Source: Dictyostelium discoideum (taxonomy: Eukaryota). From it: a stretch of 64,000 nt of DNA. The notes beneath the pieces are model-generated. The model searched no databases, was not told the origin of the DNA, and saw only the letters and a list, made by a program, of their open reading frames with translations. This document shows, piece by piece, positions 1-37,426 of the stretch (position 1 is the first letter of the stretch; every line of letters begins with the position of its first letter). The position numbers and the translations under genes were made by a program. The stretch spans positions 1,120,001 to 1,184,000 of the forward strand of contig CM000150.2 of assembly GCA_000004695.1 (NCBI GenBank). Reading direction: 5' to 3'.

Positions 1-1104
1 CAACAACAACAACAACAACAACTACAACAACAACAGCAACAACAAAATCAACAAAATAATAATTTAGGATATATTAAAAAAGATGGTATAATTTTTAGTT
101 TAAATGAAAATTCAAAAAATTTTAATGATTTTAAAGAAAGAAGTAAAGAATTTGATATGATTATAAAGTTTATAAATGAAAAGAAATCAATGTTAAGTAG
201 AGAAATGGTTGAATTTGAAAGACAAAATTCAAAATTAATAAATATTGCAATTAATCAGATATCAGCTTCACAAGAACAAGTTAATGAAAAAACCAATAAA
301 TTAATTAAATCAATTCAAGATTCACAACAATCTGATTATTTAAAGAAATCAACGATTTTATCAATTGTGAAAAAGTCATTAAGTCAAGTTGAATCACAAA
401 TTACATTTCATAATGCTTCATCATTTCCATTGGCATTAGTATTGGTTAGAGTTGGTGAAAAGTATCCAGAGTTAATTGATTGCTTATTAGCTTCATTAAA
501 TGAAAAATGTTGTTATACTGTACCTTACTATGTCTCACCAAAAGAGAATGAATCACAATCTTCAATTTCAAAAAGGATGGGTTATGCATTTAGTAATGAT
601 ATTGTTGGAGATAATGATAAACCAATTGAAACTGAAGATGAATTTCATAAAAGAATTTGTGGTTATTTATCATTATATTGTGCTTTAATTTTAAAATCAG
701 AACAACCTCATAAATCAAGCTCTTCTTCTTCCTCCTCCTCCTCTTCAACAATGATGTTTGGTTTTGGTACACAAATTGGTAATAATAATAATAATAAACT
801 TATAAATAAGAATTTAAATATTGAAAGTTCATTAAGATGGTTAAAAGATTTAGTATCATTAAGACCACGTCGTATTACATCATATTTATTTGTAACATTT
901 TTCACTCATCTTGGTAACCTATTATCAAAGAATCAGAAGAGTAGTTTAGAATTTAAAATAATTGTTGGGAAAATAGTTGAAGAAAATTTCTTTAATCAAA
1001 TGAATAAACCTGGTACTGAAGGTTCATTTTCAAGATTAAAAAATTTAATTGAAGAATATTATAAAACTGGTACCTTTCAACAACATGAAGGTGTTGATTT
1101 TTAA
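1..1104 (+). CDS. gle1: mRNA export factor GLE1 homolog, C-terminal part. The reading frame is open from base 1 through a poly-Q run, so the 5' end lies outside the window. Stop at 1102-1104.
   Basis: The frame is open from nt 1, where (CAA)n encodes poly-Q. The conserved C-terminal block 'FPLALVLVRVGEKYPELIDCLLASLNEKCCYTVPYYV...EFHKRICGYLSLYCALI...SFSRLKNLIEEY' matches the GLE1 C-terminal domain from memory (human '[35 protein letters not shown]', 'RMSGMIRLYAAII', 'GSFIRLKQFLE'). Confidence 0.7.
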   Translation, partial: QQQQQQQLQQQQQQQNQQNNNLGYIKKDGIIFSLNENSKNFNDFKERSKEFDMIIKFINEKKSMLSREMVEFERQNSKLINIAINQISASQEQVNEKTNKLIKSIQDSQQSDYLKKSTILSIVKKSLSQVESQITFHNASSFPLALVLVRVGEKYPELIDCLLASLNEKCCYTVPYYVSPKENESQSSISKRMGYAFSNDIVGDNDKPIETEDEFHKRICGYLSLYCALILKSEQPHKSSSSSSSSSSSTMMFGFGTQIGNNNNNKLINKNLNIESSLRWLKDLVSLRPRRITSYLFVTFFTHLGNLLSKNQKSSLEFKIIVGKIVEENFFNQMNKPGTEGSFSRLKNLIEEYYKTGTFQQHEGVDF

Positions 1105-1190
1105 ATTCAATTTATTAATATAAAAAAAAAAAAAAAAATAATCAAAATAAAATAATAATAAAAAATTAATTTAAATTATAACACAATAAT

Positions 1191-1221
<31 letters not shown>

Positions 1222-1612
1222 ATTGCAGTGTACATTAAAAAAAAAAAAAAAACTTTAACTATAATAAATAAACATTTAATTATGTGATAAATATCACATA
1301 CACTTTTTAAATCAATAATTTATTTTATTATTTATTCAATTTTTAAATTTTCTAAACAAACACCACGCCCAATAAATCATATCAACTTCCATTTAATTAA
1401 ATTAAAATAAAAAAAATTAATAAATAAAATAAAATAAATAATTAAGAAAATAATATTAATATTAAAATTAATATTTTATTGTATTAAAAACTTTAAAAAG
1501 AAATCTTATAGTTTTTGTTGAAATTTATTTATTCATCTGATCTTAAAGATATTATTTCAGAATTATCATAAAGATTAATTGTATCTTTATTTTTTAAATA
1601 AAAAGAATAAAA

Positions 1613-1735
1613 TTGATTGGAACAATAATCATTAAAAAATGGTTCGATGACTCTTATGAACATATAATGGGCGATAAAGGCTTTCAAGGATCCGATAAAT
1701 TATATTTTAAATTTATAGTAATTTCGAGAAAAAAC

Positions 1736-1776
<41 letters not shown>

Positions 1777-2038
1777 TAATGATGGTGATATAAATGGAGA
1801 ATGTTTTGAACCAGAATATTATGTAAGCGATGAAAAAGAATCAGATGCAAGGTTTAAATCGATTAGAATAATAATTGAAAATGTTTTTGCTCACATTAAA
1901 AAATATTCAATTACCTGTCTCACTTTTAGATTTAAGAATAAGATTGAATCAACAACTTTATTGGACTATCATCATAAAATTTGGTGTGTTGTTGCATTTT
2001 TGGTTAACTTGTATGTTGAAATTAGAAAGAAAGAATAA
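1613..2038 (+). pseudogene. Remnant of a DDE_Tnp_4 (Harbinger/PIF-type) transposase C-terminal region, interrupted by an (AAT)n poly-N insertion. It has no credible start and no N-terminal catalytic part.
   Basis: The 141-aa ORF contains 'GDKGFQGS' and 'ARFKSIRIIIENVFAHIKKYSITCLTFRFKN'. This resembles the conserved 'D.GY' and 'R..VE..Fg.LK.RF.iL' blocks of Harbinger/PIF DDE transposases. The ORF track translates its first residue as M, but the first in-frame ATG is at Met18, the upstream catalytic D residues are missing, and a repeat family follows at 2131-2345. Confidence 0.5.
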
Positions 2039-2130
2039 ACTCTCATATTAATTTAATATGAAAACAATTTCGACAAAAAAAACATTTTCATTTCACAAAA
2101 AAAAACTTTTTTTTCTGAAAATATTATCAT

Positions 2131-2345
2131 TATTTATTATTTTAAATCTATTATCAAATAAATTATTATATATATTTTTTTTTTTTTTTTTTTGGTGTTT
2201 TGAAGATATTTTTATTTTTCGATAAACAGTTTTTTAAATTTTTTTTTCTAAGTTACTTTTTTTAAGATTGGCATTTTTTGGTGTTTTGAAGATATTTTTA
2301 TTTTTTTCGATAATCAGTTTTTTAAATTTTTTTTTCTTTTTTTTT
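2131..2345. repeat. ~115-bp AT-rich repeat element, present here as one full copy plus one partial tandem copy. It reads 'tattttaaatctattatcaaataaattat...tttttcgataaacagttttttaaatttttttttctaag' and is related to the copy at 4961-5075.
   Basis: Direct inspection: 2131-2262 and 4961-5075 share 'ttaaatctattatcaaataaatta(t)tatat' followed by 'ttatttttttcgataa(a/t)cagttttttaaatttttttttctaag'. The second half recurs in tandem at 2270-2340. Confidence 0.75.
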
Positions 2346-2623
2346 TTTTTATTTTAAATATTCACACTTTCACCAATTAAAACACAAACCCTAAAAAATG
2401 CAATGAGTGAAAGATAACACTCCATTTTGACACCTGTGTTGGTGTTGACTTGAACAAAGATCTAAACCATGGGTTAAAAAAAAAAAAAAAATAAAAATAA
2501 TAGACTTAAAAAAAATATAAATACTTTAAAACTTTTTTTTTTTTTTCATTCTCAAAAATAAATTAAATAACTTTTAAAACAAAAAATTTAAATAAATAAA
2601 ATAAAAAAATTAAAAATAAAGAA

Positions 2624-3895
2624 ATGATAAATATTGAAGATATTTCAAAATCTTCAAATGAAAGTGAAGAAAAACAATTAAAAAGTACAAGTACAAGTTC
2701 AAAACCAAAATACCCATTCGCAGCAAAAAGCTTATTCAAAGGTTCAAATAATATTATACCATATTATTTATCAACCAGTAATACATTCCAATGTGTAGCA
2801 TCTGAGTCAATTCAAACATGGCTTCTTTCAGATGATGGTCATATCTTTACATCCAGTGGTAATTTTGTTTTAGATGTTTCATCAGGTGGTTATTTTGTTG
2901 AATTAGTACAACTTAATTCAAATTCAAAAACTCAAATTTGGACAATTGATACAACAAATAATAAAATTCAAAACCAAGGTAATGGTAAATACCTTGATAT
3001 CGACAATTTGAATATTTGTGTTGCACCTTTAAATGGAAACGCAACTCAAAAATGGACAACTTTTAGAAGAGCACCAATTCCAACTGGTAATTGGGGTTAC
3101 TTTCAAAGCAAAAAATTGGATTCCAATAATAATTATTGGGGTCTAAGTGTATTAAATAATAGTACATCATATAATACTAGTGTAGTAATGAATAAAGTTC
3201 AAGCAAAATCAATAGGTCAAATTTGGCAAATGACAAACGATGGTCACATTTTATCACGTTTGGATGGTAATTTAGTATTAGATATTGGTCCATCAATTAA
3301 TGGTAGTAAAACAAACTATTATTTAAATACCAATGTTTACAAAGCAAATGATCTAATGCAACAATGGGGTATCAACGAAAATAATCAAATATTCAATCAA
3401 TATTATCCAAATTTATGTATTGGATTCGTTGGCGAACTTGGAGTTGATTCAACTGTTAATTGTGTATTAGCTCAACCAACTAGTGCTAGTGATATTAATT
3501 TCCAATGGATTGCAAATCCAACCTATTCATTAAACCAAATTGTTAGTGAAGTACCAGAACCATTTCCAGCTTACACAAGTGGTGATTTATTAGCATCATA
3601 TCAATACCTTAGTAATGATGCAACAAATGGTTATACTGATGATATTAGATCACTTTATACAAGTATTAATGTTAGTTTAGAACATTTCTATGTTAATGTC
3701 TCCAATGCAACTTGTCCATCATCAATTCATTCAACTGAAGATTTTTCAAATGTTCAAAATCAAATCAAAAATGAACTCACCTACGCAATCAATGTCCGTT
3801 TAGTATTTGATAACTATTCCGATTTTTATAGTAAATTATTTAGTCAAGGTAGTACAAATTTAACAAACTTGGCAAATTTAATTAATGTCATCTGA
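2624..3895 (+). CDS. Ricin-B (beta-trefoil, QxW) lectin-domain protein, N-terminal ORF of a split gene. It may belong to the Dictyostelium Cup (calcium-upregulated) ricin-B protein family.
   Basis: Repeated QxW motifs are spaced like beta-trefoil subdomains: 'TQIWTID', 'TQKWTTF', '[25 protein letters not shown]', '[13 protein letters not shown]', 'NFQWIANP'. The 423-aa ORF ends at TGA 3893-3895, immediately followed by a 19-bp tandem duplication. Family assignment beyond ricin-B is inference. Confidence 0.6.
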
Positions 3896-3900
3896 CCAAG

Positions 3901-4950
3901 TTGTTGTCATCTGACCAAGTTGTAAATGGAAATTACACCGATGCAATTACCAGTGTTTTTTATGCAATTATTTCAGAGATACCAATTGGTGGTTCAATAA
4001 TTGCAAACATTGGTGAGTCAGCAGTAGAATTTGGTGAATTAGATGCTGAAAGTAATGATTCAGGCCCATCAACCTATCAAGTTACATTAAGTAAACTCTA
4101 TGATCATTTAAATGAAAATTATGAAAATGAAATGGCAAATGCCCAAAGAATGAAAAATACCATTTTACAAGATTGGGGTATGATGAGTAAAACCTTTGCA
4201 TTATGTTTCTTACCAACCAATAATCCATCCTCACTCAATATCAATGGATTAGACTTTCAAAAAATTTCTACCATAGCTTCTATAGCTTACCAAACTGCAA
4301 TGATTCAAATGTTATTACCAACTAATTATCAAATTTACTTTACACCAGCTGGTTACTATGCACCAGTTTCAAGTGATGATTACTCTTATACTGATAGTAC
4401 TGGAACCTATATTATGGCGGAAATCGATAACTGTAACTCTCATCCTCCAAAAGCTTTAACCGATAAGTTATGGAATAATGGAGTTTCAAAACAAGAAGTT
4501 TTCACATCTTCCTATGGTTGGAATTTAGCTACCTCTGTGACCTATTACAATATGGTCGGTAGATATGGTGGAATGTTTAAATTATCTTTCCCAACTGTAA
4601 AGAATTTAACATCAGTACCAATTCAATTCGTAATGACCAATGGAAGGGATAGAGTTGGTACTTTCAATGTTAAAACTCATTTTACTGGATTAGCCTCAAC
4701 ATATTACAATTCAGGTGCCCTTGGTCATCATTATTACGATATTGCTGTAACTGATATTAACGGTAACAAGGTTGCAAATTTCACAGTTGACAATAATTTG
4801 GTAGCTCTTGAAGGTAGTTATGTTTCAATCAAAACTAATTCATTAGTTGTTCAACCAGGTTATGTTGTTGGTAATCCAACTTGTAATCAAGGTGGTTTTT
4901 CTCAAGGATTTGCTGCTTCAATTTTAATTCCAATTTATAAATCAAATTAA
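3901..4950 (+). CDS. C-terminal continuation or partner ORF of the ricin-B lectin gene. It has no ATG start in the present sequence, and its beta-rich C-terminal domain is of unknown family.
   Basis: The 349-aa ORF is open only from TTG at 3901. Removing one copy of the 19-bp duplicate (3905-3923) restores ATG-TCA-TCT ('MSSDQVVNG...'), which overlaps the upstream TGA by 11 nt. The two ORFs total ~772 aa, the size I recall for Cup proteins (~85 kDa). Confidence 0.45.
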
Positions 4951-4960
4951 AAAAATCGAT

Positions 4961-5075
4961 TTTAATTATTTATTATTTTAAATCTATTATCAAATAAATT
5001 ATATATTTTTTTTTTTCGATAGTTTTATTTTTTTCGATAATCAGTTTTTTAAATTTTTTTTTCTAAGATACTGTT
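4961..5075. repeat. Second copy of the ~115-bp repeat, forming direct repeats around the lectin segment.
   Basis: See 2131-2345. It abuts the truncated paralog fragment at ~5075. Confidence 0.75.
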
Positions 5076-5084
5076 ATCTGGTTA

Positions 5085-5690
5085 TCTGAAAAATTAATTT
5101 CTTGATTTGAAATATTACCTTTAATTTTAGATTTGAATTTAATTAATTGATCAAAGAATAAATCGATTCTATTAATATCTAAAAAAAATATTAAATGCTC
5201 ATTTAAAATTTCTAATTTATTACCTCTTTAACTTTTTTCCAATACTTTATAGAGTGATTCAACTGAAGTTTCATCTTCAAAGATTTTTTCAATTGAAATT
5301 TTAAAATTGAAAAATTGATCTTCATCTTCATCCAATTCACCATATACTTCATTAAAATATTTTTAAGATATATAGATTTCATTGACAAGTATTCATATTG
5401 ATTATAGGTTGAATCCAAATCTATAAAAAACTGTTTACCCCCACTATTGGCTTCTTCAATTAAATCATAAGCTTCACAAATCCATTCAAATATATCACAT
5501 TCTTTTAAATATAATTCATAAAGACCTTCTATTAACTTTTGAAATACATTTGCAAACCTTGATTCTGATCGAATATTATCAAAAAAAAATATTTAAAATT
5601 AATGAATTTAATTCAAGTATTGAATGATAGAATGTAGAAAACAAAATTGGTAGAAATCTTTCTTCTAAATTTTCAGTTGAAATTACAAAT
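5085..5690 (-). pseudogene. Inverted, internally deleted fragment paralogous to the C-terminal third of the 33178..36723 gene.
   Basis: The reverse-strand translation matches 'FSTENLERRFLPILFSTFYHSI', 'YLIEEAN.G.K.F.IDL', 'QYEYLSMKSIYLK', 'ILNEHLIFFLDINRI(N/D)LFFDQLIKFKSKIKGNISNQEINFSD' of the large gene. The acidic and SR-rich blocks are missing and stops are present. Confidence 0.7.
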
Positions 5691-5692
5691 TC

Positions 5693-6241
5693 TTGAATAT
5701 AATCATTATAACCAAACTTTATAGAAATTATGAAACAATTTTATCTCAAGTTGAAATTATATTTAAAAATAATTCAAAAGAATCCATTTTAGAATTCATT
5801 AAATATTATTCATCAAAAGATGTATATGAATTAATTGGTAATTTATATTGTGATCATATGGTTATAATGTTTTATATTCTCTATTCATCAGATACTAAAG
5901 ATCAATATTTAGAATTTTTAAATTCAATTAATCCATATTGTTGTTCATCATCGTCACCAGCATGGTCATCATCAATTGATTCAAAACAAAATGAAAATGG
6001 TTCTGATGAAAATGGTGCAGATGAAAAAAGAGAAAAATATTTACATATTCAATCAATTAAATGTTATTTTCCACTTGAATGGAATTTATTTTTAAATAAT
6101 ATTAAATCATATTCTCCATTTAATAAAGTATTATTATTAACTATTTTTAAAATGTTTTCAATCTTTTCTTTTAATATTAAAAAATCTTTATTTATTGAAT
6201 TTCCTTTTTTTAAATATTTCAATGTTAAATTCATTTTCTAA
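5693..6241 (+). pseudogene. Plus-strand fragment paralogous to the middle of the 33178..36723 gene (residues ~430-600).
   Basis: 'ETILSQVEIIFKNNSKESILEFIKYYSSKDVYELIGNLYCDHMVIMFYILYSSDTKDQYLEFLNSINPYCCSSS...YLHIQSIKCYFPLEWN' is near-identical to the large gene but truncated and divergent at both ends. Confidence 0.7.
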
Positions 6242-6334
6242 AAACTTTAAATTAAATAATCTTTTTTTAATTTCAAATGATTCAATTTCAAAGAATTTAT
6301 TAATTTCAATTTTTGAAACATTTATATAACCATC

Positions 6335-6465
6335 TGATTTTGTATTGGTATTGGTATTGGTATTGGTATTTGTATTTGTATTGGTATTTGTATTGGTATT
6401 GGTATTGGTATTGGTATTGGTGGTGGTATTGGTGGTGGTATTGGTATTGGTGGTATTATAAAGTT
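6335..6465. repeat. (GGTATT)n hexanucleotide microsatellite.
   Basis: Tandem 'tattggtattggtatt' units; the 'WYWYWY' ORF it generates is an artefact. Confidence 0.9.
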
Positions 6466-7364
6466 TTGGATTATCTAAAATTAATTCTAATAACTCTACA
6501 TTACAACGATAATTATTATAAACTGTAATTGAAATAATTTTATTTTTTAACTCAACTCAATTGAACTCATTATTTCTTTGGTGAAATTTTAATTGGTTTT
6601 GAAATTAATTTTAAGAAAGCTAAAAAAAAATAAAAAAATAAAAAAACAAATAAAAAAAATTAAATAAAAAAAAATAGAATACTAATATAAACATTAATTT
6701 TAATTAAACCCAACCAGATTTTTTTATTTGTTTTTGTTTTTATTTTTATTTTTTTTTTTATTTTTTTTTATTTTTTTTTGTTTTTTTTTTTTTTGTTTTT
6801 TTTTTTTTTTTTTTTTTTTTGAAAAGTATTTTTAATTGGATATTATTTGAAAAATATTTTTAAACTGGGGGTGTGTTGGTGTTTAATTTTTCTGTTTAAT
6901 TTTTTTGTTTTTTTTTTCTTCATTATTAAACAAAAAAAAAAAAAAAATAAAAACAATTTAACAAAAAAAACAAAATAAAAATAACTTTTTTTGAATTTGA
7001 CACTTTTGGTGTGAAAAGGATTAAAAAAGATTACGGAGTGGATTATTAAAATATTACAAAAAAAAAAATTTTTTAATGACAATAGTAATTTATGTTTTAA
7101 TATAATTTCGGTAAATAAAAAAAATAAAATAAAAAAAAAAACAAAAAAACAAAAAAAAATAAATAAAAAAATAAAATATATGTATAATAAAAAGTAATAA
7201 ATAAAATAAATAAAATAAATAAAATAAAAAAATAAAAATAATATGTTTAAGGTGATTGATCAAAAATTTTAAAAGAAAAAAAAAAGAAAATTTAAAAATA
7301 ATTTTTTTTTGAAAATTTGAAAAGGCAAAAGGGCCAAAAGATTTTTTGAATATTTGCATTTCCG

Positions 7365-7399
<35 letters not shown>

Positions 7400-7448
7400 C
7401 CAAACGACATCTGAAAATAATACTTTCTAAAAAAAAAAATACAAAAAT

Positions 7449-7481
<33 letters not shown>

Positions 7482-8798
7482 CTTTTTTAAAATAAATTTA
7501 AATAATTATTTGAATCTGAAAAAAAAATAAAATAAAAATAAAAATTTTTAAAATTAGAAAAAAAAAAAAAAAATACAAAAAATTGAAAAAAAAAAAATAA
7601 AATATAAAATAATTTAAAAAAAAAAATAAAAAAAAAAATAAAACGACAAACAAATAATACAAAATTAATTAATATTTTAATAATATATAAATATATTTTT
7701 CATATGATAAATTACCATAATAAAAAAAATAAAAATAAAAAAAATAAAAAAAAATCAATTTATAAAAACAATATTACCCCATTTCTCACCACTCCCCTAA
7801 CTCACCTCACTCGTTGACACTCCGTAGGATTGCCAAAAATCTTCAACTCTATTTTCTTTTAAAATAATTTAAAAATTTTATTTTTTTTTTTTTTATTTTT
7901 TTTATTTTTTTATTTTTTATTTTTTTTTTTTTTTTTTTTTGAAATCCAACCTGTCATAAATAAAATTTTTTTTTTTTTTTTCTATCATTCTTTTTATTAG
8001 TTTTTCCTTTGCCAATACAATAAATAATATTAATCAGTAAGTATAAAATTAAATTAAAAAAAAAAAAAAATTAAAAAATAAAAAAAAATAAAAATAATAA
8101 AAATAAAAAAATAAAAAAAAAAAAAAAATAATAATAATAATTAAATAATTCCAAATAAATTAAAAAAAAAAAAAAAAAAAAAATATTTTTTATTTTATTT
8201 TTTTAATCTATTTTAAAGATTCAATCACAAAATTTTTTTTTTTTTAATTATTTTTTTTTTTTTTTTTTTAAAAAGGATCTTTTTTTTTTTGGAAAACCCC
8301 CTAACAATTAAAATTTTTTTTTTTTTTTTTTAAAATTCCATAGTTTGATAAAAGAAAAAAAAAAAAAAAAAAAAAAAACAAAAACTAAAAAATTAAACAC
8401 CCACATTATTGATAAAAAAAACAATCAAGTATTTTTTGAACCTTTTTTAATTGAATAAAAAGTTATGAATATCAAAAATTCAACAAATAGTTTAACAAAC
8501 GAAGATATCAACACCACTAATAATACCAACAACCAACCAAGCGACAGCAATAATAATAATACTAGTAATATTAATAGCAGTAGCAGTCAAGTACCATCAT
8601 CATCATCACCACCACTACCACCGCAACAACAACAACCAATTATTACCACCATCAGCAATTCGTCAATCACAATCACACATACCAAAACAAACATCATTTC
8701 ACGATTTTAATCTTTGTCACAATCCACATAATGAGATTAACCCATTTGCAGACACCTCAAATAACCCAAACAATGGAGCCAGTGGTAGTGGAAATCCA

Positions 8799-12710
<3,912 letters not shown>

Positions 12711-13837
12711 ATTAAATTAAAATAATATAATAAATATAAATATAAAAATATCATATACATATACCTGTGTATTTTTTTCATTTGTTTTTAAGTTTAAGGG
12801 AAAAAAAGAAAAAAACAAAGTTAACTTTGTCTTTTTTTAATGGAAATCATTTTTTTTCACTTTTATTTTTTATATTTTTTCTTTACTATTAATATTTTTA
12901 TTTTTTATATTTATAATCCTCACCTGGAAATGTATCTTTTTCTTTATCCAATAGCATTATTTCTTACAAGAACGACCTTGTTGAGAAATAAAAAAAAAAA
13001 AGAAATAAAAAAAAAAGAAATAAAAAAAAAAAAAAAAAAAAAAAAGAATATATAAACAAAATCTTTTTTTTTTTTAATTTTTAAATTTATTATTTTGCAA
13101 AATGGAAGGCAACAATGAATATTTAGATATATGTATTTATTTAAAAACTTTTGAAGAGAATATGGACTTATTAGTTGCGACTTTGCTAAACCTAAATGAA
13201 GGTAGATTTTATTTATTTTTTATTTTATATTTATTTTTTTTTTAGGAAGTTGGACAGGGGGAAAATTTTATAATATTTTATAATATAAGTTCTTTTTTAT
13301 TTTTTTTATTTTTTTTTATTATTTAATTATTATATTTGTTTTTGAAATGCAGTTTTATTTAAAAATTTTAAGGTTTATTCAATAAACTTTATTGAAAAAT
13401 TTAGGGAATTATATGGCCATATATTTTCCTAATGTTATAGTGCATAGATAAATCTTTCCTTTCTCTGACACCAATATTAATACTGACCATTTTTTATTTC
13501 TCTTTGGATATGATAGTATTGATATGAACATTAACTTTTCCAAATGATATAGTGCATAGATAAATCTTTCCTTTCTTTACCATTAGATTGGGTTATGATA
13601 CATATCATATTACTACATTTTCTTAGAAATAACCACTTTTAAATTCTTTTTTCTATATTTTTTAATAGTAAAATTAGATTTATTTATTTTTTTTTAATTT
13701 TATTAATTATTTTTAATTTTTTTTTTAAATCACTTTTTAACCTTTTTTTTTTTTTTTCTTTTAAATTCTATCTTTAATCTTTGTTTTTGAAATAATACTA
13801 TTTCATTTTATTGGTTTTAATTCTTTGGTTTGGAATG

Positions 13838-13871
<34 letters not shown>

Positions 13872-14947
13872 TCAATTTATATTCTGATAATTTTTTTTAT
13901 ATTTCCAATTTAAAATTATTTTGATTTGTCCTAAAAAGGAATGTTAATTTTTTTTTTTTTCCTTTTTTTTAATCAAATTTCTAAATTGGAAACTATTAGA
14001 TTAATTTTATAAAATTTTTGTTTTGTTTTTATTATACTTATTCTCCCCATAAATCATCCATCAACATTGAAATTATTTAATAATCTTACTCAAACTAAAA
14101 AAAAAAATTGTAAGTTATAACTATTCACTTAAAACAAAAAAAAAAAATTTTACAATCTTTATTATTATATACTAATATTAATTGTATATAGGCTTCTTCA
14201 TTTATTATTAAATTGTTTTCAATATTTGAAGCTGTTAAATTAATTTCTTCTTTATCTGCTAATGGAAACAATATTTATTTTTTTATTTTTTTATTTATTT
14301 TTTTATTTGTTTTTTTATTTTATTAATTTTTTAATTTATATAAAAGAAAACAATGATTTGGTTAACTTTTAATTGTTTTTTTTTAATTTTCTTTTTTGGT
14401 TGAAGGTATAAATTCTTCAGAATCTTCCCTTAATTCATCTTCAAACAAAGAATATTAGATTAAAATATAATTCAAAAAAAAAAAATTTTTGTGTTTTTTT
14501 TTTTTTTTTTTTTTTTAATCTATTATAATGACAAACACAGGTCCAATATTTTTTTATTTTTTATTTTTTCCATATGTTAACAAATAATTAAAATAATAAT
14601 TAAAATCACACAAATAATAAAAAATACATAAATTACTAATAATAGATTTCCAAAAAAAAATCTTTCCACAAGTTGACAATAAGCGAAAAAAAAAAAAAAA
14701 ATAAAAAAAAACATATCTCTGATATTGTTTGTTCAAATGTCAAATGACAAAAGAATTATTTTAAAAAATAAAAAATAAATTGTTAAAAAAAAAAAAGATA
14801 TTTTTTTTTTGACTTTTTTTTTTTTTTTTTTTATTCATTGAAAAAAAGATATTTTTATTTATTTTATATTCTTTTTTGTATTATTTTTTTTTTTTCTTTC
14901 CATTTACTAAGATCCATCTTTGATCTTTTGGTTCTTAATAAAAATAA

Positions 14948-14979
<32 letters not shown>

Positions 14980-15481
14980 CACAAACTTTATTTTTAAATT
15001 TGTCCACAAACCTTTTTTATTTTTTTTTTTTGATTTTATTTTTTTTTTTTTATTTTATTTTTTTTTTAAATATTTTTTTTTTTTGGTTTTTTTTAATAAA
15101 AATTTAAAATTTTATATTTTTCCAATTTTTTTTTTTTTTTTTTTAAATTATCACACAACCCACATCTGCTTCTAATCATTTTAAATGTAATTATTTTATT
15201 GCATAACTCCATCAACTATAAACACAATCTGAATTTGAATGAAACCAACCACCCTTTAGCACACAACCACCACTCACCACAAACAATAATTTTCTCTCAT
15301 AACCCACCCTCAATAAGTCCTCAAACTATTTTTAAAAAAAAAATAAAAATAAAAAAAATATAAAAAAATAAAAAAAATAAAAAAATAAAAAAATAAAAAA
15401 ATAAAAAAAAGGAAAAAAAAAACAATAATAATAATAAAATAATAATAATAATAAAAATAATAATACAAAATCAGTTTACAA

Positions 15482-15516
<35 letters not shown>

Positions 15517-15616
15517 ATAACAAAAACCAATATTCTTATAATTTTTTTTTTTTTTAACAACGCAATAAAAAAAAAAAAAAAAATCCACATTATTAATATT
15601 TTTTTTTTTTTTTTCA

Positions 15617-15649
<33 letters not shown>

Positions 15650-15779
15650 CAACTAAAATATTTTTAACTCCATAACAAACACCACACATATCTAAAATAG
15701 AAGCCTTTTTTTTTTTCTCTGGGAATCAAAACAACAATAATAATAGTTATTAAATTTAAATAAATAATAATAAACCAAA

Positions 15780-15826
<47 letters not shown>

Positions 15827-15911
15827 ATATTAATAATAATAATAATAATAATATAAAATTTAATAATAATACAATTTTAGTATTATTATTTTTTTTTATA
15901 AAAAAAAAAAA

Positions 15912-17390
15912 ATGAATGAAATTACAAATAAAATGAATTATTTGATATCTAAATTAATAGACCCAAATTTAGTAAATCAAAATAATAATAATCACAATAA
16001 TAATAATAATAATCATCACAACAATAATAATAATAACAATAATAATTTTAATAATAATTCAAATCCATTAAGTGCAAGAGAAGAGAAACCAAAATTAAAA
16101 TATAAACATTGGTGTGGAACAGTAGAGAAAAAGGTAGCATCAATTGGTTCATTGATACCAGTTTTAGAATCGAATCTTTTAGGATCAGATGAAAAGAAAA
16201 AAGAGAAAGCGATTACAACATTTCATAAAATCACAGTCTCATTGAATGAGTTAATCCCACTTTTAGAGATTATACAATATAAACCAGCTCATAAATCTGA
16301 GGGTTTTGCTTCGACATCACATAGTTCACAACATGGTGAATCTGATTCACCACCAACTTCTGGCTTCATTTCATCCTCCTCAACTTCACCAAATACATCA
16401 AATTCAAATTTAGCAAATTTAACAAATAACGCAACTGCAGCACAAACCACTGCATCATCATCATCAACATCATCATCATCATCATCATCATCATCAACAA
16501 CCAACCCCCCTGTAAATAGCACACCAAATAGTAATAGTAATAGTAATAATAATAAAGATTTAAATAATAATAAAGATCAACAATCACCATTATCAATGTC
16601 ACCAATTTCTTCATCAGCAAATGGTAATTCAGAGAATGGATTATTAGCGGCATATAAAGAGTTAACAAATAGTGGTGGAATTAAAGCACAACAACTTGAT
16701 GGCAGTAGTAGTAATGGGATTAGTGGTGGCGGTGGAGTATTAAGATCAACTAAAGCAATTTCATATTCATGTAGGGATGCAATGTTAACATTATGGTCAC
16801 AATTATTATCATTCATTGAAAAGTATCATAATATTGAAAAGGATTTAACACCATTTTATCAAACTATTCTTTTAATTTGTCGTAGAAAAGAATATGATAG
16901 TTCAATTTCACATATTGATCCAATTACCACTAGACCTTGGTCATTGGCTCCAAATGAAATCTTATCAAAATATAGAAAAATTATACATAAAACTTTTTCA
17001 TTTATTGCTACAATTTTATCATCACCATTATTCTTTTCAATACCATTAACTCATTTTTGTTCAAAAGTATTTATATTTATATTTATTTTTTTATTAAAAA
17101 AAAATTTAAATTTAAATTTAAAATTAATTTAGAAATACTTACACTTTTTTTTTTTTTTTAAAAAAATTAATATAAAGTTTTTATCAGTATCATTTTTTAG
17201 AATACCAAAAGTAGCAAAAATAATTTTAGAAGCATTAACACCACCAGAAACAGAAATTCAAGATATTATATCACATTTTCCAATACCTTCAAATTTAAAA
17301 CATTTAACAATTGTTGGTGATAGACCAGATAAATCACCATTTCATACTTTTTTAATGCAAATGGGTAATAATAATAATATAAATAATATA

Positions 17391-30367: not shown

Positions 30368-30689
30368 TTAATTACAACCACATGAATAACTTCTGGTTGC
30401 ACTGAGATTGATATCAATATCAATGTTTACATTGACATCGACAATTGCAAGTAAACCAGCACCTGGATAACCATAACTACCACCACCACATGAACCACAT
30501 GCAATTGAATTTGAACCCATTGATAAACCAGAAGCATTCTTTGATGATACACTTGATTTAGATGAAGTGTTCATTGGTTTTGAAATTGAGGTTAAGGCAG
30601 CTAAAAAAAAAAAAAAAAAATTGATTAATATTAAATTAAAATAAAATATATAATAATTTTCATAAACAGTATTTACATAATAAAGACAT
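30368..30689 (-). CDS. HssA/2C/7E-family small Gly/Ser-rich protein (hssA-like), two exons: 30689..30677 and 30601..30368.
   Basis: A 13-nt first exon ATGTCTTTATTAT precedes donor GTAAAT. The acceptor is 'ttttag|CTGCCTTAACC'. Product: '[59 protein letters not shown]...SYSCGCN'. Confidence 0.65.
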
Positions 30690-31177: not shown

Positions 31178-31407
31178 TTAATTACAACCACATGAATAAC
31201 TTCTGGTTGCACTGAGATTGATATCAATATCAATGTTTACATTGAGATCAACAATTGCGAGTAAACCAGCACCTGGATAACCATAACTACCACCACATGA
31301 ACCACATGCAATTGAATTTGAACCCATTGATAAACCAGAGACATTCTTTGATGATACACTTGATTTAGATGAAGTGTTCATTGGTTTTGAAATTGAGGTC
31401 AAGGCAG

Positions 31408-31452
<45 letters not shown>

Positions 31453-31529
31453 GTTTAATAATTTAAAATTTTTATATTAATTAAACTTTTTTTTTTTAAA
31501 AAAAAAGAATATTTACATAATAACGACAT
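31178..31529 (-). CDS. HssA/2C/7E-family paralog, two exons: 31529..31517 and 31407..31178.
   Basis: Same 13-nt first exon (ATGTCGTTATTAT), GTAAAT donor and 'tttttag' acceptor. Protein 97% identical to its neighbours. Confidence 0.65.
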
Positions 31530-32288: not shown

Positions 32289-32619
32289 ATGTCTTTATTA
32301 TGTAAATATTAAAAAAAAAAAAAAAATTATGTAAACTATTAAAATTTAAAACTAAATTTTAATTTTTTTTTTTAAAAATATATTAGCTGCCTTAACCTCA
32401 ATTTCAAAACCAATGAACACTTCATCTAAATCAAGTGTATCATCAAAGAATGCCTCTGGTTTATCAATGGGTTCAAATTCAATTGCATGTGGTTCATGTG
32501 GTGGTGGTAGTTATGGTTATCCAGGTGCTGGTTTACTAGCAATTGTTGATCTCAATGTAAACATTGATATTGATATCAATCTCAGTGCAACCAGAAGTTA
32601 TTCATGTGGTTGTAATTAA
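32289..32619 (+). CDS. HssA/2C/7E-family paralog on the plus strand, two exons: 32289..32301 and 32387..32619.
   Basis: ATGTCTTTATTAT|GTAAAT ... 'tattag'|CTGCC. It is arranged head-to-head with the 31178..31529 copy. Confidence 0.65.
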
Positions 32620-33177: not shown

Positions 33178-36100
33178 ATGAAAGAAATAAATAGTAGTAA
33201 GAATGAAATTTTATTTTGGAAAGTTTTTAAAAATAAATTATTATTTAATAATATTTTCGATGTTATGGTAAAAATACCAATAAAATATAATGATTATACA
33301 AAGATTCATTCATTTAATAGAATAAAATTTAAATATATTATTTCATTAAAATTTATGATCGAAAAGAATCTCTATAAATTATTAAAATGTAAATTAGATA
33401 ATAAAGAGTCAATAATTGTTGAAGAGGATTCAATGATTTCGATATTTAAAAAAAAACAAAATATTGAAGATGAAAAAAAAAATGAAAAATTATTATTATT
33501 AATTTTAAAAAATAGAGAAACATTAAAATTAGATAATAGTTTTGATTTTATACAAAAAGCAATATTTGAATCAAATGAAAAAGTTTTAAATCTTTTATTA
33601 AATTATCCAAATGAAATTTCAACAAATCAACTACATCAAAAACCTCTTTTAATAATTAAAGATTCACACATTCAAAGTATAATTGGAAATTCAAATGTTT
33701 CAATGTTAAAAACTTTATTAAATTCATCACTATTTAAAAATCAGCAACAACAACAATTGGAACAATTTCATCAATTAGTACCTTCAAATGAATTAAAAAA
33801 TAAAATTATTTCTATTACAATTAATAATAGTTATCGTTGCAATGAAGAGTTATTAGAATTTATTTTAGATAATCCAACACTTTATAATACCACCACCACC
33901 ACCACCACCAATATCACAAAACCAGATGGTGATATAAATGTTTCAAAAATTGAAATTAATAAATTCTTTGAAATTGAATCATTTGAAATTAAAAAGAGGT
34001 TATTCAATTTAAAGTTTTTAGAAATTGAATTTAACATTGAAATATTTAAAAAAAAAGTGAATTCAATCACTAAAGATTCTTCAATATTAAAAGAAAAGAT
34101 TGAAAACATTTTAAAAATAGTTAATAATAATAAAGAAAATTCCCATGATCAAGATTATGGTAATGAATTTAAAAGTCTTTTAAAATTATATTCTCCATAT
34201 TCAAATGATGTTTATAAACAATACATTTTAAATTATAAAGAGATAATCGATGATGATCATGATGATGTTGAATATTTACAATTTATAGATATTAATAAAA
34301 AGATTGAAACAGAGCTATTATATTCACTCAATACTTTTAATTTAGAATTATTAAAAAAAGTAATTGAAAAAAATGAAAAACAACAAAAACAACAACAACA
34401 AAAACAAGTGTTTCAAGAGATTTTTAAAAAATATGTTCCAATTGATATTTATAGAGAAAATGAAACAGTTTTATCTCAAGTAGAGATTATTTTTAATAAT
34501 AATTCAAAAGAATCCATTTTAGAATTCATTAAATATTATTCATCAAAAGATGTATATGAATTAATTGGTAACTTATATTGTGATCATATTATTATTATGT
34601 TTTGTTTTCTTTATTCATCAGATACTAAAGATCAATATTTAGAATTTTTAAATTCAATTAATCAATATTGTTGTTCATCATCATCTTCATCGTCATTGTC
34701 ATCATCAATTGATTCAGAACCAAATGAAAACGGTGCTAATGAAAATGGTGCAGATGGAAATGGTGGTGCAGATGAAAATGGAGCTGATGAAAATGGTGGT
34801 GCAGACGAAAAAAAAGATAAATATTTACATATTCAATCAATTAAATGTTATTTTCCACTAGAATGGAATTCATTTTTAAAGAATATTAAATCATATTATC
34901 CATTTACTAAAGATAGTAAAGTACCATCAGTTACAATGAGTATTGATGATAAAGAAACAATTGATTGGTTATTTAATACATGTGGTCATTCAACATTTTC
35001 AAAGATAATTGTTAATTATTTACGTTTGAAATCAATTGATTTAATCGAATATACAATTGAAAAATATAAACTCAATGGTAAAGAAAGATCATTACTATAT
35101 TCAATACCATTTTATAATGCAATCATTGATTTCAATGTTAATGAAATTAAAAAAATTATCAATTTAAATATAAATGGTCCAATTGAAGAGTATTATAATT
35201 TCAGTACATTATTATTAAATTCATTTACTGAAAAATTTATTAATAAAGATGAAAAAGATAAACATGAAGATAAAGATGAACACGAACATGAAGATGAAGA
35301 TCAAGATGAAGATCAAGATGAAGATGAAGATGAAGATGAAGATGAAGATGAAGATGAAGATGAAGATGAAGATGAAGATGAAGATGAAGATGAAGATGAA
35401 GATGAAGATGAAGATGAAAAAGATGAATATGAGGATGAAGATTTTTCAAATAATTTTTATAAAACATTCAGATACTTGATAAAAATTAATTTCAAAAATT
35501 TTTCAACAACTGCGTTTAAAGAATTTTTAAACCTGTTATTGATAAGAAGCGATTGTGGTGAACTTATTATAAAAGATATTAATTTTACTGGTATTGAATT
35601 TTCAACTGAAAATTTAGAAAGAAGATTTCTACCAATTTTGTTTTCTACATTCTATCATTCAATAGGTGAACCCGGTCCATTGTCTTTTTATGGCTATTTC
35701 AATAGTAAAGATATGTCTAGAATTTTTTCAGCTAGTTTAGAAATATTTGAAGATTTTGAATTTTATATTAGTGATTGCTCTGGAGATATAGAAAGTCTTT
35801 GTTTGTTTATTGAGTTTTTATTAATCGATTATAAGTATTCAACATATATTCCCTCTACAACTACCAGTAGTAGTAGTAGAAGCAGAAGTAGTAGTAGTAG
35901 TGGTAGTAGTAGAAGTAGTAGAAGTAGAAGTAGTAGTAGTAGTGGTAGTAGTAGAAGTAGTAGTAGAAGTAGAAGTAGTAGTGACTCAAGTACAACGTCA
36001 CCACCATCATCTCCAAATATTGATACTGATAATTTTTCAGAATTAAGGTATCAAAATCTATTTGAAAAGTTAGTAGAGGAAATTTATAAACTTTTATTAA

Positions 36101-36723
36101 AACAAAGTCATAAATGTGGTAAATTTGATTGGGTTTACGTAGGTTATTATTTAATAGAAGAAGCCAATTATGGAGACAAACCATTTTGTATTGATTTGAA
36201 TTCAAACTATTTTCAATATGAATACTTGTCAATGAAATCAATATATCTTAAAAAATATTTAAATGAAGTATATGGAGAATTGGATGAAGACGAAGATCAA
36301 TTTTTCAATTTTAAAATTTCAATTAAAAAAATCTTTGATGATAAAACTTCAGTTGAATCACTCTATAAAGTATTGGAAAAAAGTTTAATACGTGATAAAT
36401 TACAAATTTTAAATGAGCATTTAATATTTTTTTTAGATATTAATAGAATCAATTTATTCTTTGATCAATTAATCAAATTCAAATCAAAAATTAAAGGTAA
36501 TATTTCAAATCAGGAAATTAATTTTTCAGATAAAGTTTTTATTACAACATTAAAAGTTTTAGATGAAAATTCATTTAAATCATTTTTTAATGATTATTGT
36601 TCCAATCAATTTTATTCATTTTATTTTAAAAATAAAGATACAATTACTCTATATGATAATTCTGAAATTGTAAAACAATTAATATCTTTAAAATCTGACG
36701 ATCAATTATCACCAAAAAATTAA
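33178..36723 (+). CDS. Large (1181 aa) orphan protein with a (DE)n acidic block and Arg/Ser-rich tandem repeats; family unknown.
   Basis: Uninterrupted ORF. (GAAGAT)n at 35290-35420 encodes 'DEDEDE...'. 35870-35990 encodes 'SSSRSRSSSSSGSSRSS' repeated. Paralogous fragments lie at 5085-6241. Confidence 0.7.
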   Translation: MKEINSSKNEILFWKVFKNKLLFNNIFDVMVKIPIKYNDYTKIHSFNRIKFKYIISLKFMIEKNLYKLLKCKLDNKESIIVEEDSMISIFKKKQNIEDEKKNEKLLLLILKNRETLKLDNSFDFIQKAIFESNEKVLNLLLNYPNEISTNQLHQKPLLIIKDSHIQSIIGNSNVSMLKTLLNSSLFKNQQQQQLEQFHQLVPSNELKNKIISITINNSYRCNEELLEFILDNPTLYNTTTTTTTNITKPDGDINVSKIEINKFFEIESFEIKKRLFNLKFLEIEFNIEIFKKKVNSITKDSSILKEKIENILKIVNNNKENSHDQDYGNEFKSLLKLYSPYSNDVYKQYILNYKEIIDDDHDDVEYLQFIDINKKIETELLYSLNTFNLELLKKVIEKNEKQQKQQQQKQVFQEIFKKYVPIDIYRENETVLSQVEIIFNNNSKESILEFIKYYSSKDVYELIGNLYCDHIIIMFCFLYSSDTKDQYLEFLNSINQYCCSSSSSSSLSSSIDSEPNENGANENGADGNGGADENGADENGGADEKKDKYLHIQSIKCYFPLEWNSFLKNIKSYYPFTKDSKVPSVTMSIDDKETIDWLFNTCGHSTFSKIIVNYLRLKSIDLIEYTIEKYKLNGKERSLLYSIPFYNAIIDFNVNEIKKIINLNINGPIEEYYNFSTLLLNSFTEKFINKDEKDKHEDKDEHEHEDEDQDEDQDEDEDEDEDEDEDEDEDEDEDEDEDEDEDEDEDEKDEYEDEDFSNNFYKTFRYLIKINFKNFSTTAFKEFLNLLLIRSDCGELIIKDINFTGIEFSTENLERRFLPILFSTFYHSIGEPGPLSFYGYFNSKDMSRIFSASLEIFEDFEFYISDCSGDIESLCLFIEFLLIDYKYSTYIPSTTTSSSSRSRSSSSSGSSRSSRSRSSSSSGSSRSSSRSRSSSDSSTTSPPSSPNIDTDNFSELRYQNLFEKLVEEIYKLLLKQSHKCGKFDWVYVGYYLIEEANYGDKPFCIDLNSNYFQYEYLSMKSIYLKKYLNEVYGELDEDEDQFFNFKISIKKIFDDKTSVESLYKVLEKSLIRDKLQILNEHLIFFLDINRINLFFDQLIKFKSKIKGNISNQEINFSDKVFITTLKVLDENSFKSFFNDYCSNQFYSFYFKNKDTITLYDNSEIVKQLISLKSDDQLSPKN

Positions 36724-37059
36724 TAGCACTACTCAAAATTAATGAATAATTGGAATTCCAATTAATTAACTATACAATTTCTTTTTTAAAAATAATAAAA
36801 AAAAAAATTTAAATAAATAATAATAATTTAAAAACATAAAAAATTAGTTTACATTTTAAAAAAAAATATATATATATATATATTTGTATAATTATTTCTT
36901 TATTTCTTTTTTTATTTATTCTGGTTATTTTATAGTGATTAAAGAGAAGTTGGTATGATCGAATGGGTGTGAATATTTTGGTGGTGGTGGTAGTGGTGGA
37001 TTTCTTTACAGGTTAAACAATATAATAGTAATTATAAATAAAAATATTGAATTTTTTTT

Positions 37060-37185
37060 TTTTTTGTTGTTTTTTGTTTTTGTTTTTGTTTTTGTCTTTG
37101 TTTTTGTTTTTGTTTTTGTTTTTGTTTTTGTTTTTGTTTTTGTTTTTGTTTTTGTTTTTGTTTTTGTTTTTGTTTTTGTTTGTTT

Positions 37186-37278
<93 letters not shown>

Positions 37279-37280
37279 AT

Positions 37281-37338
<58 letters not shown>

Positions 37339-37340
37339 AT
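37060..37340. repeat. Compound microsatellite (TTTTTG)n-(TTG)n-(TTGCTG)n, ~280 bp.
   Basis: Direct inspection. It lies between the stop codons of the large gene and rab24; the ORFs it generates (poly-C, poly-L) are artefacts. Confidence 0.9.
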
Positions 37341-37426
37341 TATTATTGCCTAGTTATGTCAAATTTTGTTTATGATGTATAAATATTAAAATAGATAAAG
37401 AAAAAGGAAAATATGTGATTGTAAAT

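Follow-up and report, generated by a model that had tools for sequence, protein, structure and literature searches.

Genes and features of the window

The sequence analysed here (the window) is a stretch of 64,000 nt of Dictyostelium discoideum DNA with a content of 78% A+T, homopolymer runs and poly-N/Q/T tracts. It contains an intact gene of 1181 codons, which we refer to as the parent gene, and, on the opposite strand, a relic composed of pieces of the same gene and interrupted by an insert of foreign origin. The coordinates of all features are collected in Table 1.

Table 1. Features of the parent and relic regions (positions in the window; L003 is the copy locus of D. cf. discoideum ACTFIY).
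Feature	Position	Strand	Remarks
Segment Z, 3′ end of the copy	1506–1644	−	Parent 36578–36720, codons ~1134–1181; L003 11312–11459
Insert, D. discoideum-specific	1645–5081	+	3437 bp, replaces ~44 nt of the copy (L003 11268–11311)
Truncated PIF/Harbinger-type DDE transposase relic	1652–2038	+	ORF 1613–2038; Pfam DDE_Tnp_4 (PF13359)
A single complete unit from the tandem array of cup (calcium up-regulated, ricin-B lectin) genes	2122–5075	+	Pfam Ricin_B_lectin
Cup unit, 5′ inter-unit repeat	2122–2348	+	Part of the cup unit
Cup unit, coding region	2624–3895 and 3901–4950	+	Frameshifted
Cup unit, 3′ inter-unit repeat (“115-bp repeat”)	4959–5075	+	Part of the cup unit
Segment A	5082–5576	−	Parent 36027–36533, codons 950–1119; 90.3% to L003 10772–11267
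Segment B′	5572–5707	−	Parent ~35594–35670; L003 10433–10551
Segment C, inverted	5715–6128	+	Parent 34448–34912, codons 424–579
Segment D/E	6129–6601	−	Parent ~33742–34132, codons ~190–319; L003 8699–9194
hssA/2C/7E-like small-gene remnant	6577–6709	+	75% to 31370–31486
hssA/2C/7E-family small Gly/Cys-rich gene	30368–30574	−	Pfam PF05710, intact
hssA/2C/7E-family small Gly/Cys-rich gene	31178–31402	−	Pfam PF05710, intact
hssA/2C/7E-family small Gly/Cys-rich gene	32413–32619	+	Pfam PF05710, intact
Parent gene	33178–36723	+	Intact 1181-codon ORF

The parent gene is devoid of introns, and a Pfam scan of its product returned no domain. Relatives were searched for with residues 1–675, the full 1181-aa query being swamped by low-complexity words and giving a single match. 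An exhaustive HMMER search with the shorter query yielded 19 matches at E<1e-3, and all those looked up come from Dictyostelium. Neither an exact nor a close match to the parent ORF was present in a collection of 15 billion proteins, in which its pseudogene fragments are annotated as proteins. The AlphaFold2 model of residues 1–675 is all-helical, with a mean pLDDT of 44.7, and is unreliable. A homolog from D. dimigraforme is 37% identical to the parent product. In that species at least three family members lie in a same-strand tandem (L002 2007–13066, with models of 1170, 482 and 1021 aa), from which the family seems prone to local duplication. The parent family appears to be an orphan one, restricted to Dictyostelium.

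Upstream of the parent gene lie three nearly identical hssA-like genes, each inside a repeat of ~450 bp, two of them pointing one way and the third inverted; the one beside the parent gene has an orientation that fits its co-duplication with the parent. A comparable hssA-like cluster is present in D. cf. discoideum (L004). Directly 3′ of the parent gene, at ~37047–37382, there is a long simple-repeat tract whose ORF translations read as poly-Cys, poly-Leu and (FL)n, which indicates that it is probably built of trinucleotide and hexanucleotide repeats. Further downstream, the ORF 40464–41696 matches a part of DDB_G0267940 exactly.

The relic is an inverted copy of the parent gene with one piece flipped back

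An earlier note on this DNA had interpreted positions 5085–6250 as scrambled, inverted pseudogene fragments of the 33178–36723 gene. A blastn comparison of 4900–6700 with the window, together with a self-comparison of the entire window, upholds the derivation (E 2e-175 and 4e-139 for the two best pieces), the identity of the relic pieces to the parent ORF ranging from 81 to 94% at the nucleotide level, with E values down to 1e-175. The extent has to be revised: on the minus strand the relic runs from ~1506 to ~6601, which is ~3.5 times the length proposed, and it is split by a 3.4-kb insert. About two thirds of the relic had been missed, segment Z and part of segment D/E among them, as had the insert. 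When read from 6601 downwards, the pieces follow one another as D/E, C, B′, A and Z, which is the parental order, and C is the only piece flipped within the relic. Scrambling and inversion are thus real inasmuch as one piece is turned with respect to the others, but it is the whole copy that is inverted with respect to the parent, only C has been re-inverted and the order has been kept.

At the 3′ end of the copy, the core of Z (1554–1644, minus strand) aligns with parent positions 36578–36668 with 94.5% identity over 91 nt in blastn, and tblastn recovers residues 1136–1175; the segment has lost 12 nt and contains, close to its end, two indels that shift the frame. Segment A (5082–5581, minus strand, in the blastn alignment) matches 36027–36533 with 86.9% identity over 510 nt (E 2e-175; residues 954–1118 in tblastn). 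It shows a −1 frameshift at parent position 36250 and a TTA>TAA change at codon 1070, both specific to D. discoideum, as well as in-frame deletions of 6 and 9 nt that a multi-way alignment finds in common with the sister-taxon copies. The core of B′ (5612–5688, minus strand) corresponds to 35594–35670, codons 806–831 (92.2% over 77 nt in blastn; residues 809–841 in tblastn), and its flanks are recognisable only against the sister copy. Between A and B′ a Ser-rich stretch has been lost, amounting to ~220 nt when compared with the sister copy at L003 and to 356 nt when compared with the parent, which agrees with the internal deletion that had been proposed for the C-terminal part.

Segment C aligns from 5718 to 6128 on the plus strand with 34448–34912 (E 4e-139; 81% identity with gaps and 92% without gaps in blastn; residues 424–578 in tblastn). 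It has in-frame deletions of 3 and 51 nt, and neither stops nor frameshifts. The two matches that follow, D (6129–6370, minus strand, to 33886–34132, 90.7% in blastn) and E (6423–6554, minus strand, to 33789–33917, 88.6% in blastn), are one and the same segment, split by a ~84-nt expansion of a (GGTATT)n/(GGT)n microsatellite at ~6330–6450 that corresponds to a poly-Thr/Asn tract of the parent. For D/E as a whole tblastn recovers residues 205–318; the right end is at 6554 against the parent and at 6601 against the sister copy, and a −2 frameshift is found at parent position 34048. The frameshifts, nonsense codon, truncation and deletions are in keeping with the description of the fragments as decayed, non-functional paralogous sequence. 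The near-identity in places is also borne out: a stretch of 28 residues, SKESILEFIKYYSSKDVYELIGNLYCDH, is identical in relic and parent.

Next to the right end of D/E lies the hssA-like remnant, which marks the right edge of the duplicated block and derives from the small gene that stood upstream of the duplicated gene. Between the remnant and D/E, ~1.45 kb comprising the promoter and ~200 N-terminal codons are missing. Within the 64-kb window, blastn of the remaining sequence against the parent gave nothing but low-complexity acidic and Ser tracts. No match was obtained in tRNA and Rfam scans.

An independent D. discoideum assembly (GCA_054883475.1, strain ACTFIT, L001) is collinear with window positions 1–16286 at 99.56% identity. 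Between 5000 and 6500 the two sequences do not differ at any position, the rearranged structure being alike base for base. As an independent assembly holds the identical structure, an assembly artefact is excluded. A 96% identity of P0006, considered as a strain difference, was dropped, as it reflects only a difference of gene model (intron).

The insert combines a transposase relic with one unit of the cup array

The left part of the insert contains a DDE_Tnp_4 match (E 2e-7; 31.2 bits, the cut-off being 24.8) that covers profile positions 74–158 of 158. It represents the C-terminal half of the DDE domain only, is interrupted by an internal poly-Asn run and stops exactly at the junction with Z; in strain ACTFIT it is annotated as a gene of 123 aa. 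A complete PIF/Harbinger element comprises a full transposase, a Myb/MADF-like second ORF, terminal inverted repeats (TIRs) and a 3-bp target-site duplication. Between 1100 and 2640 neither a second ORF nor TIRs were recognised and the DDE domain lacks its N-terminal half, so that this is not a complete element of the type. Among the loci examined, further copies of the transposase relic were found nowhere except at the same site in ACTFIT. To our knowledge, the Dictyostelium repeat families given in the classical lists do not include Harbinger-type elements. On its left side (1645–1720) the insert has no sharp edge, the sequence there being weakly similar to the copy (z = 3.0 and 1.4). A 33-bp target-site duplication flanking the insert was considered as well and rejected, since by eye its two candidates agree at only ~70% and their similarity is marginal (z = 3.0 and 1.4).

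The remainder of the insert is a cup unit. Cup genes reportedly form a multigene family regulated by Ca2+ and calcineurin (Coukell et al. 2004, Eukaryot Cell). Window positions 2122–5062 align with 13536–16475 of L006, a cup array on another chromosome, with 94.5% identity over 2968 nt, 5′ and 3′ intergenic DNA included, and the product is 93–94% identical to CupE and other Cup proteins. This DNA identity to a unit of the tandem array ties the inserted sequence to the family; it differs from the known members in being a dispersed single unit, located on chromosome 1 inside a pseudogene and carrying a frameshifting duplication of 17 nt. The duplication is found at 3886–3923, where two copies of TGTCATCTGACCAAGTTGT form a near-perfect tandem; it replaces 6 nt, the net gain is 11 nt and the ORF is split at 3895/3901. 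At this site CupE reads NLINVDMSSDQVV uninterrupted, and intact cup paralogs read straight through, whereas the window copy has no uninterrupted cup ORF of ~769 codons. The cup copy, too, is probably a pseudogene; at best it would encode the N-terminal ricin-lectin half only. The 115-bp repeat, which had been proposed to bound the duplication on one side, is a real repeat (4959–5075 is 74–80% identical to 2122–2260 and 2272–2348); it is not a boundary of the duplication but the cup inter-unit sequence, which the inserted unit naturally carries at either end.

The sister taxon D. cf. discoideum retains the ancestral arrangement

In D. cf. discoideum ACTFIY (L003) a full-length copy, collinear with the parent, occupies positions 8008–11459, flanked as in D. 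discoideum by the P-type ATPase and GLE1 genes. In this copy segment C is oriented like the adjoining segments, the promoter and the N-terminal 200 codons have been retained, and both the DDE relic and the cup unit are absent. A second strain, ACTFIZ (L005), shows a different 5′ truncation, an un-inverted C and no insert. In both strains only ~45 nt separate A from Z, and no sequence corresponds to window positions 1645–5081. The ACTFIY locus also holds hssA-like sequence at 7150–7384 plus the ~1.45 kb that is absent from the D. discoideum relic.

Compared with L003, the D. discoideum relic has lost ~7251–8698 (1.45 kb), 9195–9479 (285 bp), 9931–10432 (502 bp) and 10552–10771 (220 bp), the second and third losses flanking the inverted segment C. 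The inversion, the four deletions, the insert, the frameshifts and the stop are all specific to D. discoideum. In ACTFIY, the parent ortholog (L004 10001–13479) is split into ORFs 411, 136 and 444 aa long, and at least six ORFs make up the copy (L003 7936–11478); these splits reflect either earlier decay of the family or homopolymer errors of the assembly.

The sister arrangement bears on a different origin of the mosaic, by which the gene pieces and the cup unit would be the cargo of a PIF/Harbinger-like transposon, in the manner of Pack-type transduplication. As in Pack-MULEs and other Pack-type elements, pieces of host-gene sequence form a mosaic in which their orientation differs, here with a foreign gene unit among them, and DDE transposase sequence stands beside them, directly abutting Z. 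The relic differs in that its pieces come from one gene, every one of them in parental order, and in that the sister taxon has a full-length collinear copy at the same site without transposase relic or cup unit. Moreover, an inverted-repeat search returned pairs of A/T low complexity only, with no TIRs above the A/T-rich background, and the transposase, a later arrival, is truncated exactly at the junction, which points to a victim of the rearrangement instead of the end of an intact element. We consider capture by a transposon very unlikely.

The duplication is slightly older than the split of the two taxa

The earlier note had taken the duplication to be recent, a view at odds with the syntenic copy in D. 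cf. discoideum. Quartet-informative sites from five segments favour the grouping of the D. discoideum copy with the D. cf. discoideum copy, and of parent with parent, by 31:11:4. The in-frame deletions of 6 and 9 nt are found in all copies and are absent from both parents. As the quartet sites and the shared deletions group the copies, the duplication predates the split of the taxa. The dS between copy and parent is 0.15–0.16, close to the 0.14–0.16 between the taxa, and therefore the duplication is only slightly older than the split.

An independent recent duplication within D. discoideum, with the sister copy stemming from a parallel event, would account for segments C and D/E being slightly closer to the D. 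discoideum parent (92–93%) than to the L003 copy (88–91%). Site, orientation and hssA-like flank are nevertheless identical in both taxa, the copies share the copy-specific deletions, orthology is favoured by the quartet sites in all segments that carry signal, and a dS of 0.15 is too high for a recent event; we regard two separate duplications as exceedingly unlikely. For D. discoideum, gene conversion of parent and copy after speciation was likewise rejected on the quartet sites, which point to orthology wherever a segment is informative.

Computed for one set of 446 codons throughout, dN/dS amounts to 0.33 for parent against parent, 0.72 for copy against copy and 0.54 for copy against parent, which indicates that the copy is under relaxed constraint. 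The copy–copy value lies below 1; the copy may have been functional for a while, or this may reflect a bias of the Nei–Gojobori method at 78% A+T.

The 182-codon ORF and the possibility of a function

The annotation of strain ACTFIT treats fragments of the relic as genes, namely ACTFIT_008568 (182 aa) and a minus-strand model of 101 aa, and bridges the frameshifted cup copy by an “intron” of ~29 nt. The 182-codon ORF spans 5693–6241 on the plus strand and consists mostly of segment C, followed by read-through into the antisense strand of D. It had been interpreted as a copy of the middle of the parent (residues ~430–600). This applies up to position 6128, that is, to residue ~579 and not 600; the last 113 nt (6129–6241, the C-terminal 37 codons) are antisense to parent residues ~281–319.

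The ORF could be a chimeric gene of recent origin that encodes a protein, or antisense RNA or siRNA produced by the relic could regulate the parent. The ORF is intact and listed as a hypothetical protein in the ACTFIT annotation, and segment C shows neither stops nor frameshifts and a dN/dS of 0.51. However, C has accumulated 10 copy-unique and 9 copy-shared substitutions, and in neutral trials with 10–19 copy-lineage substitutions its frame stays open in 10–30% of the cases (P ~0.1–0.3). As neutral survival is expected at this frequency, the open frame is not evidence of function. The C-terminal 37 codons are antisense read-through, and the two strains show zero polymorphism here, so that their comparison carries no selection signal. 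As regards an antisense route, A, B′ and D/E follow the cup unit and, read on the plus strand, are antisense to the parent; either the Ca2+-inducible cup unit or the chimeric ORF of 182 codons might conceivably be the source of transcription on this strand. Against this, an AATAAA-type signal can be read between the cup stop codon and segment A. A regulatory or coding role of either kind is, in our estimation, quite unlikely. The relic would have no coding function and is presumably not expressed, and the 182-codon ORF would be a chance survivor. Nothing specific turned up in the literature.

Junctions and proposed history of the locus

The upstream hssA-like gene fragment was co-duplicated and the sister copy includes the promoter region, both of which speak for an origin at the DNA level. 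No poly(A) tail was identified on the relic. As the parent gene has no introns, intron loss is uninformative on retroposition. Of the two joins of the inverted segment, C|D is blunt, with at most 1–2 nt of microhomology, and lies inside trinucleotide repeats, and B′|C contains ~13 nt of filler assignable to neither side. As the joins are blunt or carry short filler, we infer that they arose by end-joining repair of double-strand breaks. The transposon may possibly have had a part in making the breaks or in carrying the cup unit.

Taken together, the region is very probably a non-processed pseudogene, that is, an old inverted duplicate that arose at the DNA level and was later rearranged in D. 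discoideum. In the common ancestor of both taxa, a block of at least 4.5 kb, with the hssA-like gene and the 1181-codon gene, would have been duplicated in inverted orientation and have landed at a distance of ~27 kb, with the P-type Ca-ATPase gene on one side and the GLE1 gene on the other; constraint on the copy would then have relaxed. The subsequent steps, whose order is tentative, would have taken place in D. discoideum only. A 1.45-kb deletion would have removed the promoter and the first ~200 codons, and the microsatellite would have expanded. The 414-bp middle segment is likely to have been inverted with the loss of 285 and 502 bp at its two breakpoints, and the Ser-rich tract of ~220 bp to have been deleted. 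Near the 3′ end, ~44 bp would have been replaced by the 3.4-kb insert, made up of the transposase relic and a unit copied from the cup array. Point lesions would complete the series: two to three frameshift sites, another two close to the end, and a single nonsense codon.

Comparison with known systems and further matches in D. cf. discoideum

The relic resembles other duplicated pseudogenes in being a DNA-level copy with flanks, under relaxed constraint and with frameshifts, a stop, deletions and, here, an internal inversion, and its fragments have been annotated by automatic pipelines as “hypothetical proteins”, as happens with pseudogenes of this class. It does not differ from them in kind; what sets it apart is that the sister taxon keeps the un-rearranged state, so that the steps can be assigned to a lineage. 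It is an ordinary duplicated pseudogene and opens no new biological question. Its main value is one of annotation hygiene: the relic fragments and the cup copy merit pseudogene flags in the strain annotation, in which the “intron” bridging the cup copy is implausibly short. It has also a modest value as a worked example of the stepwise dismantling of an inverted duplicate in an extremely A/T-rich genome, documenting an inversion by end joining (as the joins suggest) with flanking deletions, a microsatellite expansion and the ectopic insertion of a tandem-array unit beside a DNA-transposon relic. We think it improbable that the relic is other than inert, be it through antisense RNA or siRNA against the parent, through a new small protein, or through the Harbinger relic being the trace of a transposon that mobilised the cup unit. 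If the last were true, this would be the first PIF/Harbinger-linked gene transduction in a social amoeba.

Two minor observations were made in D. cf. discoideum. Parent and copy are 99.2% identical over 129 nt of the Z region (parent 36578–36720) and ~88% identical elsewhere, probably owing to a local gene-conversion tract in that taxon only. Upstream of the parent ortholog, L004 8307–8448 contains a 142-nt match to the parent 3′ end and the sequence downstream of it (window 36703–36848, 82%), which hints at one more fragment or at a former arrangement in tandem.
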